Both the position numbers and the translations under genes were made by a program. Under the pieces are notes generated by a model. It made no database searches, had not been told where the DNA came from, and saw nothing but the letters and a program-made list of their open reading frames with translations. From Candidatus Bathyarchaeia archaeon (GTDB lineage: Archaea > Thermoproteota > Bathyarchaeia > Bathyarchaeales > Bathycorpusculaceae), in assembly GCA_049969855.1 (NCBI GenBank), contig JBMFOB010000007.1:1-57984 (forward strand): a stretch of DNA of 57,984 bases, read 5' to 3'. Of the stretch, positions 2,439 through 5,437 are shown piece by piece; within the stretch, counting starts at the first letter, position 1, and the number at the start of each line of letters is the position of its first letter.

Positions 2439-3494
2439 TTAGTGGATTACAATTAATGTTCCACAGTATTCGCATTTCACTGAAGTTTCTCCTTTATAAA
2501 TTTCGCGAGTGTATGGTGCACCGCAATGGGGACATCGGACAAGCTGTATTGTTGGCGCTTCCTTAACTGTGGTTCCTCTTATGGATGCTATGTCCCTATC
2601 TGCTTCTCCGCCAATTATGTAGCTGAAGAATCTTGTTATTATGTCGGCTTCCCATCCCTTAACGTCGAAAGGTGTCTCTGGTAAACCCCGTTCGGGTTTG
2701 AAGCGAATGTAAATTCCAGTCCAAGCTATTAAGCCTACTCTGCCCTTAGATATTTCTTGTAGGGCGCCAATGGGTTGTTCTATTAAGACTGTTCTTTCAA
2801 CCTTCTTTTTTGTGGTTATGAAAAATTTCCTCTCCAAAACGACTTCTTTCTTTCCTTCAAAAATGAACCTTTGATTAGTGAAGTATAGGGTTCCCTCGCT
2901 TTTTTCGCCGCTCATAATTTTTCCTTCAATTGCCAAAACTGGGCTTTCTTCTTGTTTTAGCGGGAAAGTTGCCATGGAGAACAGTTCCATGGTTTTTTCA
3001 GCCACTTTCAAGTCTCTGTCTATGGCGTTGACGCTTGAAACGAACTCGTTAAGGGGTGTGCTGACTTTGCCTGTTTCCGTTATGGCTCTCATCTTTAAAG
3101 AGGAAGCGTCTATTGAAAGGCTGCTTGCCAAAGAACGACTGAAACCGATGTTGCCGCTGTCTATCTCTGTTCTTAGCCTCCGAGCTTTCACCTCTAAACT
3201 TCGAATTTGAGTGGTTAGTGGTTGGACGCTGTTAAGAAATGTTTGTTTAAGTGTGGGCGCAGTTTCTGTCCATTTTTTGGTTAGTAGGTCAATGCTTTTC
3301 TCAAGGTGACCCATTGCTGCATAACCCCGTCCTCGAACAGTCATGAGTCTGCTTGGAAGAGAACCCATAGAAGCTTCCACATATGATAATTTGCTTTCCA
3401 CATCACTTATTGCTCCAGAAGCACCGGAAAGGTCAGACTCAATGGAGCGTAGCTGGGCGTAAAGGGCTTCCTTTTCTCTGTCGATTTGTGCCAT
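2439..3494 (-). CDS. Hypothetical protein: N-terminal coiled coil, PH-like (GRAM/bPH) domain, C-terminal C4 zinc ribbon
   Basis: GTLYFTNQRFIFEG PH-like motif; CPHC...CEYC. ATG at 3494 preferred over the track start 3533. Confidence 0.75.
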   Translation of the reverse strand: MAQIDREKEALYAQLRSIESDLSGASGAISDVESKLSYVEASMGSLPSRLMTVRGRGYAAMGHLEKSIDLLTKKWTETAPTLKQTFLNSVQPLTTQIRSLEVKARRLRTEIDSGNIGFSRSLASSLSIDASSLKMRAITETGKVSTPLNEFVSSVNAIDRDLKVAEKTMELFSMATFPLKQEESPVLAIEGKIMSGEKSEGTLYFTNQRFIFEGKKEVVLERKFFITTKKKVERTVLIEQPIGALQEISKGRVGLIAWTGIYIRFKPERGLPETPFDVKGWEADIITRFFSYIIGGEADRDIASIRGTTVKEAPTIQLVRCPHCGAPYTREIYKGETSVKCEYCGTLIVIH

Positions 3495-3633
3495 TTTATT
3501 CCGCTTCTTAAAACCATAAGATGTTTGTTTCAAAAATAAAACTTGCGAAAATTTTCTCCAAGAACCGTTTCGTTAAATAGGCAACTTTTAAATCTTAATC
3601 TTAAATATAAGATGCAAAGGCGTTGAAAAGGCT

Positions 3634-3954
3634 ATGACAATCATAGAGAAAATTTACTGGATTAGGCTTATTCTGGGTATAGTTGCAGCGTTAGCATCCA
3701 CAGGATACACCGAATATGGAGAAACAATGGGGTTTGTCTCTACAGAGGGCGTGAACTATAGTGTTTTTCTGAACGGCATAAGCATAGCAATAATCGTTTA
3801 TGTGATATCCTATTACCTAATGAAGTTCAAGTGGGCATCTAAAGTTGAAAAGCCGCAAAAAATCTTCACTACTGGCGTAGGCATATACTTTATTGCATGG
3901 CTGGTTTTTTGGGTTCTCTTCTACACTATAATTGCTGCGCCACCACCTGCTTAG
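3634..3954 (+). CDS. 3-TM EMC6-like (Rab5ip/DUF5379-type) membrane protein
   Basis: Three hydrophobic segments; IYWIR N-terminal motif and C-terminal KIFTTGVGIYFIAWLVFWVLFYT resemble the EMC6 family. Confidence 0.6.
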   Translation: MTIIEKIYWIRLILGIVAALASTGYTEYGETMGFVSTEGVNYSVFLNGISIAIIVYVISYYLMKFKWASKVEKPQKIFTTGVGIYFIAWLVFWVLFYTIIAAPPPA

Positions 3955-4412
3955 GTCTTCTTTTTAAGAAAGTTTTCAATGGTGGCTTGGCCCTCATCAT
4001 CTTTTAAAGTTTCAAGTTTTCCCTTTTCTGAAGCTGCAGAATTAACGTTTGAATTATTTGTAAGGTTCATTCTGCTGAGTATTTGCATGCAGTCAGCCCA
4101 AGCTGAGAAGAATCCGCGGTCAAAGTCTCCGTGAAGCCTACTCTTAACATGGTTTAAGAACTCCCGTCTGCAACTGTGTAATAGGGTTTTATCGTTTAAA
4201 TCCAGTTTTGAGAAAAATGCATAGGAGTCATTGTTGTTTGAGCGTCTGGCAAGCATCATTCCATACAATCCTCTAAAATAGCCCCTATTCCATTCTGTTT
4301 TATGCATTTTCTGCTTAATTTTTTCCAATTCTCGTTCTGCTTCGGTAAACTGTCTATTAACTAAAAGTTGGAAGTATCGTGTCACCAGAACCCTTGGAAC
4401 CGGCATTTTCAA
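3951..4412 (-). CDS. Hypothetical helical protein coupled to radA, with C-terminal PIP-box-like motif
   Basis: 4-bp overlap with the radA stop; internal repeat xxRGY/FF; C-terminal QATIENFL. Confidence 0.75.
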   Translation of the reverse strand: MKMPVPRVLVTRYFQLLVNRQFTEAERELEKIKQKMHKTEWNRGYFRGLYGMMLARRSNNNDSYAFFSKLDLNDKTLLHSCRREFLNHVKSRLHGDFDRGFFSAWADCMQILSRMNLTNNSNVNSAASEKGKLETLKDDEGQATIENFLKKKT

Positions 4413-5437
4413 CGCCCACGAGACTTGGACTTCTCTTCTTCGGAAACATCCTCTATGCCGTTCTCAGTTATTTTAAATATTTCTTCCCCTTCTGGCAAAT
4501 ATGGGCTTGAAACTAGGCGGGCAATTCTTACAGGTCCATGGGCAGACCTTCGAAGATACACGCGTGTGTGGCTTGTGTGCCCCACAATGTGGCCGCCGAC
4601 GGGATACACGGCATCGCCGAAAAACACGTCTGGTTTAGCCATAACCTGATTTGTCACAACAGCCACGAGGTTGAAGGCTCTTGCTAAACGAATTAGTTTA
4701 TGCATGTGTTTGTTTAGTTTCTGTTGTCTTGAAGCTAGCATTTCGCGTCCGAGGTATTCGCTTCTGAAATGGGCGGTTAAGGAGTCGACGATTATGAGTT
4801 TTACGTTATTTTGTTTTATAACGTCGTCAACGTTATCTAACAAGAACATTTGGTGGTCAGATGTGTATGCTTCGGCGTAGATGATGTTTTTAACCACTTG
4901 TTCTGGGTCGAGTCCCAAGTGGCGGGACATCTGCACAATTCTTTCAGTTCTAAAAGTATTCTCAGTGTCTATATACAATGCGGCGCCAGATAAGCCACCC
5001 CTTTCAGGCGGCAACTGGACATTAACGCAGAATTGGTGGCATAACTGGCTTTTTCCACTACCATACTCGCCATAAAATTCCGTTATGGTCTGAGTTTCCA
5101 ATCCGCCGTCAAGAATCCTGTCCAAAGCTTTGCTTCCAGTTGTTAAACGCAAAACGGTTTGGCGCATCTTTAAAAGTTCATCAGCCCTAATAAAAGAGAC
5201 GCTAATAGACGAGCGGGCAGCTTCAATGATGGCAAAAGCCTTTTTCTCGCTTATGCCTGCTGGTTCCAACTCGTGGGCTGTAGCCATTGCCAAGGATTCA
5301 ACAGTGTGGAATCCTAACTCTCTTAGTTTTTGTGCTGTGGCTGGACCTATGCCTGGAAGGTCCTCCAAAAACTCATATTTCTTTTTGAGTACGCTTTCTT
5401 CTTTCTTCTCTTCTTCCTCTGTCATCAAACGGTTCAC
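4409..5437 (-). CDS. radA: DNA repair and recombination protein RadA
   Basis: N-terminal HhH (LEDLPGIGPATA), GEYGSGKSQ Walker A, YIDTENTFR, IIVDSL Walker B, FRSEYLGR, GGHIVGH. Confidence 0.97.
   Translation of the reverse strand: MNRLMTEEEEKKEESVLKKKYEFLEDLPGIGPATAQKLRELGFHTVESLAMATAHELEPAGISEKKAFAIIEAARSSISVSFIRADELLKMRQTVLRLTTGSKALDRILDGGLETQTITEFYGEYGSGKSQLCHQFCVNVQLPPERGGLSGAALYIDTENTFRTERIVQMSRHLGLDPEQVVKNIIYAEAYTSDHQMFLLDNVDDVIKQNNVKLIIVDSLTAHFRSEYLGREMLASRQQKLNKHMHKLIRLARAFNLVAVVTNQVMAKPDVFFGDAVYPVGGHIVGHTSHTRVYLRRSAHGPVRIARLVSSPYLPEGEEIFKITENGIEDVSEEEKSKSRGR

Follow-up and report, generated by a model that had tools for sequence, protein, structure and literature searches.

A small uncharacterized protein encoded directly behind radA in Bathyarchaeia is a candidate RadA-linked accessory factor with a lineage-specific PIP-like tail

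The radA-X locus

We analyzed a gene, here called X, that follows the recombinase gene radA in a 57,984-nucleotide stretch of DNA from a Candidatus Bathyarchaeia archaeon (assembly GCA_049969855.1, contig JBMFOB010000007.1, positions 1 to 57,984 of the forward strand; this whole stretch is referred to as the window). X encodes a small protein of no assigned family, in which a conserved N-terminal domain is followed by a variable linker and a short C-terminal motif that resembles the PCNA-interacting (PIP) box (Table 1). An earlier note on this DNA had read X as a recombination accessory factor that links RadA to the PCNA clamp. With some reservation, we favor a version of this reading in which X is a RadA-linked accessory protein that gained a PCNA tether in this lineage.

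Table 1. Features of the radA-X locus (coordinates are positions in the window)
Feature	Position	Strand	Basis or remark
radA (342 aa)	4409..5437	-	Recombinase gene upstream of X; operon-like pair
X, uncharacterized protein of 151 aa (153 aa from TTG 4412)	3951..4406	-	Open reading frame list and homologue starts
radA stop/X start junction	4404..4412	-	TTG 4412-4410 overlaps TGA 4411-4409; conserved ATG 4406-4404
Conserved N-terminal domain of X, aa 1-112, no assigned family	4071..4406	-	Mean top-residue frequency 0.91 (120 clusters)
Repeat motif 1, EWNRGYFRGL, aa 38-47	4266..4295	-	Family alignment and hhalign
Repeat motif 2, DFDRGFFSAW, aa 94-103	4098..4127	-	Family alignment and hhalign
Variable N/S-rich linker, aa 113-139	3990..4070	-	Length and entropy among 120 clusters
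PIP-like box QATIENFL, aa 140-147	3966..3989	-	Conserved in closest clusters
Basic C-terminal end KKKT and TAA stop	3951..3965	-	Sequence read
Convergent small membrane-protein gene (106 aa)	3634-3954	+	Weak EMC6-like match, below cutoff

The product of the upstream gene scored 464 bits against the NCBIfam RadA equivalog NF003301 (cutoff, 259) and matched Pfam Rad51 (E value of 1.2e-88) in addition to an N-terminal HHH_5 domain. The radA frame ends in TGA at 4411-4409, and a start of X at TTG 4412 would yield 153 residues and the 4-bp overlap (TTGA) described in the earlier note. Public gene calls and all close homologues instead place the start of X at the ATG at 4406-4404 (MP[VI]P), which yields 151 residues and, as read from the sequence, lies 2 nt past the radA stop. 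The same succession of stop, 2 nt, and ATG was found in most of the relatives' loci with a computed radA-X distance, in a count for which the choice of start codon was heuristic and several loci gave no distance. The tight coupling of the two genes stands with either start; the conserved geometry is the 2-nt spacer, not the 4-bp overlap. At the other end of X, its TAA stop shares 2 nt with the TAG stop of the convergent membrane-protein gene. We regard it as almost certain that X is a real, co-expressed gene.

X belongs to a widespread family without an assigned fold

X had no match to any Pfam or NCBIfam family above cutoff, none of 80 diverse members of the X family fit a Pfam family consistently (0/80), and the family profile retrieved nothing among PDB sequences. 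A match to ANAPC8 (TPR-type; E value of 7e-4, 19.6 bits) fell under the 23.8-bit cutoff and was seen for 1 of the 80 members. In the open-access literature we found no account of the X family, of any gene that follows radA in archaea, or of a RecX-like protein from an archaeon.

A word-indexed search retrieved 2236 homologous proteins, the best 120 of which were 71 to 100% identical to X and, where named, were labeled "hypothetical protein" of Bathyarchaeia or Bathycorpusculaceae. An exhaustive search of representatives returned 197 clusters at an E value of ≤1e-3. X was single copy in all related genomes (21/21) and was present in 182/201 genomes of the class, with 119/121 for the high-quality ones. 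Across the phylum, 152/301 genomes carried X, corresponding to 46/46 genomes of its own class and 106/255 of other classes; relatives of one of the homologues from another class are named Candidatus Caldarchaeum. These genome samples are interrelated, and the counts are not independent of each other.

The conserved domain contains the internal duplication pointed out in the earlier note. In an 80-row family alignment, G42 of the first repeat motif was invariant and Y43, A46, and L47 were at least 90% conserved, as were D96, G98, F100, and A102 of the second. When the two halves of the family alignment were compared by hhalign, they matched with a probability of 78% and an E value of 1.8e-5 over 17 columns. 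The repeat is thus real but short, with modest profile-profile support. The domain displays many conserved aromatic and small residues and two similar helix-turn-helix-like units, and it is probably an alpha-helical two-repeat module of ∼112 residues. No catalytic motifs were found in it; the Walker A pattern GxxxxGK[ST] is absent from the sequence, and neither Pfam nor NCBIfam gave a Rad51, RecA, KaiC, or AAA match. GFxxA is the recombinase-binding motif of RAD51 and BRC repeats, and both repeats of X (G-[YF]-F-x-A) resemble it. We consider a recombinase-binding role of these repeats a weak idea; their invariant residues, which are small or aromatic, seem instead to be placed for the packing of helices.

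Between the domain and the C-terminal motif, the low-complexity linker noticed earlier was recovered as a segment of 26 to 35 residues among the 120 closest clusters, with a column entropy of about 1 to 2.5 bits compared with a mean of 0.39 for the domain. Insertions and deletions are visible here in the homologue alignment, and the last part of the linker (SEKGKLETLK) is moderately conserved.

Some family members carry other additions. An N-terminal extension of ∼90 residues that appears winged-helix-like by eye occurs in five representatives (P0144, P0158, P0176, P0249, and P0250), none of these extensions having a Pfam match. One genome contains a second copy of the X domain (L109 3082-3525, plus strand), which bears a C2H2-like finger and has no neighboring radA. 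Such DNA-directed additions in place of the tail fit a module that needs delivery to DNA. Another representative, as gene-called, is seemingly fused to an AhpC-like domain.

A PIP-like C terminus is conserved among the closest relatives

The terminal QATIENFL matches the canonical pattern Q-x-x-[ILM]-x-x-[FYW]-[FYWLIVM] and ends 4 residues short of the C terminus. Among the 120 closest clusters, Q..[ILMV]..[FYW] was found near the C terminus in 119, the sole exception having H in place of Q, and the Q..F core lay 1 to 7 residues from the end. The consensus in these clusters is Q-x-[TS]-[IM]-E-x-F-[LI], with top-residue frequencies of 0.99 (Q140), 0.87 (T142), 1.0 (I/M143), 0.97 (E144), 0.99 (F146), and 0.89 (L147). 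The motif is kept while the linker drifts in both sequence and length. In divergent representatives (40 to 50% domain identity), the linkers are of another, K/E/P-rich kind and reach about 75 residues, and several of these proteins still end in QRTLTDF, QRTLTEF, QSTLFDF, QSTLTDF, or QTTLDKF. A tail-type motif was present in 16/48 representatives with at least 15 residues beyond the domain. Counted by genome, the tail was found in 32/34 members of the window's family, and one of the two misses was a stop-interrupted gene with the tail after the break. In one genome of the same genus, the X ortholog (L011, G003:C93) is broken by a TGA, beyond which the tail is encoded in a 34-residue open frame; the break represents either a sequencing error or a recent pseudogene. 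Conservation of the motif among orthologs, on which the earlier proposal depended, was found within this one lineage.

We compared the X tail with other C termini of the same genome. A canonical C-terminal PIP pattern, set beforehand, occurred in 7/1334 long open reading frames (a greedy longest-frame set rather than a gene call): X, Nre, an EndoQ homologue (PfuEndoQ match, E value of 7.6e-65), an N6/N4 DNA methylase, an MBL-fold hydrolase, ABCE1, and clostripain. The pattern Q..[IL][STE][DNE][FYW] gave 7 C-terminal matches of 15 where 0.47 was expected, a figure that is circular in that the pattern was written after the hits. A looser scan added PolD-DP2 (ending KQISLTDFA) and Hel308 (ending KQKALTEY); Hel308/Hjm interacts with PCNA. 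Nre ends in QKKITDFIAKM and the EndoQ homologue in QQLNLTDFM, and the form Qxx[LI]T[DE][FY] therefore ends PolD-DP2, Hel308, Nre, and EndoQ in this genome. For DP2 and Nre, PMC7776575 describes PIP motifs at the C terminus, and a link between EndoQ and PCNA appears in PMC4858679. Like the tails of DP2, Hel308, Nre, and EndoQ, that of X has T in the third position of the motif and acidic or amide residues in the fifth and sixth. This likeness to the genome's own PCNA clients is good circumstantial evidence for a PIP box. From motif logic we infer that X may bind PCNA, and we consider it likely that its tail is a functional PIP box.

The same scans brought up other C termini. FEN1 (L104 389-1423, minus strand, G000:C2) ends in GKTTLEKWFG, with K replacing the PIP glutamine. 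The MBL-fold protein, an RNase Z-like hydrolase (L101, G000:C18:9384-10229, minus strand), ends in QQGLNKFF; the N6/N4 DNA methylase (L102, G000:C4:56557-57171, minus strand) ends in QIKLAEFLS; and a 234-residue protein of no family (L107, G000:C2:97307-98011, plus strand) ends in QLSLSNFKTEKA. These last three are possible unrecognized PCNA clients.

X follows RadA-family genes over large evolutionary distances

All loci of the window's order (19/19) have radA as the immediate upstream neighbor of X, on the same strand. Among 20 loci from 20 families in other orders of the class, radA was upstream of X in 17, or 18 when shorter matches were counted, and L092 and L094 are the loci without it. 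In other classes (20 loci, 18 families), a RadA-family gene directly precedes X at 10 loci, with seven of these being canonical radA genes and three being divergent paralogs (L066, L070, and L073; 195 to 254 bits against the RadA cutoff of 259). L073 has an additional canonical radA ∼2 kb farther upstream. Even between distantly related lineages, X is thus found behind RadA-family genes, as a rule with stop-start coupling, and the synteny suggested for homologs in the earlier note extends far beyond the window's family.

Whether the domain of X acts on RadA is, on the basis of this gene order, a matter on which we are evenly divided. RadA binding and its direction are more weakly inferred than PCNA binding, and gene order alone suggests the mediator or anti-recombinase role named in the earlier note. 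Complex prediction for RadA (49-row alignment) with X residues 1 to 118 (80-row alignment), run without controls, gave ipSAE values of 0.00 and 0.00, which speak neither for nor against binding.

On its other side, X is adjoined by the convergent membrane-protein gene in 18/19 loci of the order. Farther on, past X and this gene, the minus strand of the window carries a 364-residue protein (2439-3533) with a coiled-coil region, a weak GRAM-like match, and a zinc ribbon at its C terminus, which belongs to no family above cutoff, and an NFACT-family protein (334-2391; PF05833 and PF05670).

Comparison with known recombination and clamp-binding factors

The known PIP-box clients PolD DP2, Nre, EndoQ, Hel308/Hjm, FEN1, and the RFC large subunit have, like X, a C-terminal Qxx[ILM]xx[FY][FLI] behind a flexible segment. 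X would fit this class by its motif, by the terminal placement of the motif on a variable linker, and by its conservation among orthologs, the last in one lineage only. While these clients are enzymes or clamp-loader subunits with known folds, X consists of a domain of ∼112 residues that lacks catalytic motifs.

RecX is likewise small, has a repeat architecture, and is encoded immediately after a recombinase gene; in Escherichia coli K-12, the two genes share a strand, with recX 68 nt downstream of recA. RecX, whose repeats are all helical, is a capping protein of RecA filaments and is not known to carry a clamp-binding tail. As a RecX homologue, X was rejected at the sequence level. The RecX family (PF02631) was absent from the Pfam matches of X at an E value of ≤1 and from those of all 80 family members at ≤0.01 (0/80), and hhalign of the X family profile against the single E. 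coli RecX sequence gave a probability of 0.06%.

PARI and Srs2 of eukaryotes are large proteins of the UvrD-type helicase fold. PMC4838361 presents PARI as a negative regulator of homologous recombination that associates with PCNA. The logic proposed for X is common to both, namely, that a short motif keeps a factor directed at the recombinase on PCNA, whereas X is archaeal, has only ∼150 residues, and bears no sequence relation to either. The archaeal RadA paralogs (RadB, aRadC, and the Sulfolobus Ral proteins) are, like X, proposed partners of RadA, and RadB is presented as a recombination mediator (PMC5480776 and PMC7407445). These paralogs are RecA-fold ATPases, and X, with no Walker motif and no RecA/Rad51 Pfam match, was ruled out as a RadA paralog or RecA-fold mediator.

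Evidence against a PCNA-tethered RadA accessory and alternative explanations

Several observations weigh against X being a RadA accessory protein tethered to PCNA. X was not found in 149/301 phylum genomes, with whole families lacking it (0/45, 0/20, 0/14, 0/11, and 0/11). At 10 of the 20 loci from other classes, no RadA gene is adjacent to X. Besides gene order, nothing ties the X domain to RadA, and no homology to known recombinase partners was detected (Pfam, PDB, and RecX). The convergent membrane-protein gene is as faithful a neighbor of X as radA is and remains beside it, in the absence of a neighboring radA, at the other-class loci L065, L068, L069, and L075; thus, conserved gene order may partly be inertia. 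ABCE1 and clostripain are unlikely PCNA clients that nonetheless end in PIP-like strings in this genome, and such strings therefore also arise by chance. Finally, no PCNA gene was detectable in the window's 93%-complete assembly (PF00705, PF02747, and TIGR00590); PCNA genes are present in 19/21 relatives, with PCNA open reading frames in loci L006 and L103, and that of this genome is probably on an unassembled piece.

The tail itself is limited to one lineage, which belongs with these objections. Counted by genome, it was found in 4/10 members of the sister families of the order and was missing in 6/10; the genome set for other orders gave 1/2. None of the 20 sampled loci from other orders of the class has the tail (0/20), one of them showing a degenerate QATLDKP, and none of the 20 loci from other classes has it (0/20). 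In a tree of RadA, taken as a stand-in for the species tree, the tail-bearing rows fell in one well-supported clade (SH-aLRT of 99) of 25 rows, of which 20 had the tail and 5 lacked it; one more tail-bearing row was placed nearby, and row L059, outside the clade, is a false positive whose motif lies inside the domain (QPFLDDY). The fewest changes that account for the tail on this tree are probably six. The tail was added around the base of the window's order, was then lost several times, and is not ancestral to the family. Because it is lineage specific, PCNA tethering cannot be the core function of the X family. The earlier claim of a factor linking RadA to PCNA is partly supported, by radA synteny and by a conserved motif, but the tether cannot be extended to the family at large. 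Some tail-less orthologs (L022/L027 and L028 of family f7 and L025 of family f9) end in ...RIVQTKLV, ...RIVQTKLT, or ...PIQTTLNV, and these QxxL ends could be truncated remnants of the box or could be due to chance.

The evidence for a PIP box would serve equally well if X were a PCNA client whose target is DNA or some replication or repair protein other than RadA, with its position behind radA reflecting operon history and shared regulation. The winged-helix-like extensions of five representatives and the finger-bearing copy away from radA suggest a DNA-directed module of this kind, as do the other-class loci at which X has no RadA neighbor. We nevertheless consider this explanation unlikely, given that X has kept its stop-start coupling to radA across the class and in other classes as well, even beside RadA paralogs, which is unusual for mere co-regulation, and that most X-family members have no PIP tail.

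A regulatory or chaperone role in RadA production could also be imagined, with X acting either as a sensor or regulatory domain for the radA operon or as an assembly or storage partner that keeps RadA monomeric. Translational coupling fixes stoichiometry, as in chaperone-client pairs, and the winged-helix-like fusions would suit a transcription regulator; those assignments were made by eye and have no Pfam match, however, and neither a transcription factor nor a folding chaperone would have much use for a PCNA tether. We regard such a role as quite improbable. It is also very unlikely, in our view, that the conserved C-terminal motif binds a partner other than PCNA (for example, RadA itself or a different hub protein) or folds back onto the domain. 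The conserved stretch does reach upstream into KLETLK, outside the canonical PIP box, and the PIP-like ends of ABCE1 and clostripain would be in keeping with such a motif. Yet the motif of X agrees with the canonical pattern in sequence and position, resembles the DP2, Hel308, Nre, and EndoQ tails of the lineage, and is placed behind a linker of variable length.

A model for X and its implications

In the model that we favor, X would be a nonenzymatic accessory protein made together with RadA from the coupled gene pair, and its domain would most likely act on RadA itself or on the filaments that RadA forms with DNA. A flexible linker with a canonical PIP box, gained in the window's family and in some of its sister families, would tether the protein to PCNA. 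Control of RadA would then be placed where PCNA sits, on stalled forks and D-loops at their primer ends. X may exert this control by limiting or clearing RadA so that a PCNA-bound polymerase can extend, which would make it a functional analogue of RecX, PARI, and Srs2. Such a restraining role is favored because of the analogy with the recA-recX gene order and with PCNA-held anti-recombinases (PARI). Less likely, X would load RadA at those sites.

A bolder form of this model is possible, although we find it doubtful as a whole. X would be the founding member of a group of archaeal RadA regulators that are not RadA paralogs, binding RadA by its two-repeat helical domain and tethered to PCNA in Bathycorpusculaceae-like lineages. 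The clamp would directly control the sites allowed to RadA filaments, making this an archaeal counterpart, of independent origin, to RecX and to the Srs2/PARI-PCNA axis, in a family widespread in Bathyarchaeia and present in other classes of the phylum.

In archaea, homologous recombination is linked with the restart of replication, and to our knowledge almost no RadA regulators are known besides the RadA paralogs. According to PMC7407445, no physical or functional interaction between RadA and a polymerase had been reported to date, and its authors suspect that PCNA is on DNA during recombination-associated synthesis. X is small, occurs almost universally within a single class of archaea, is coupled to radA, and is equipped with a PIP-like tail in one lineage, which makes it a candidate for the missing link between RadA and replication. 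Tail-bearing and tail-less orthologs stand side by side and constitute a natural experiment. For a family of more than 2000 "hypothetical proteins," X also provides a function-linked handle.

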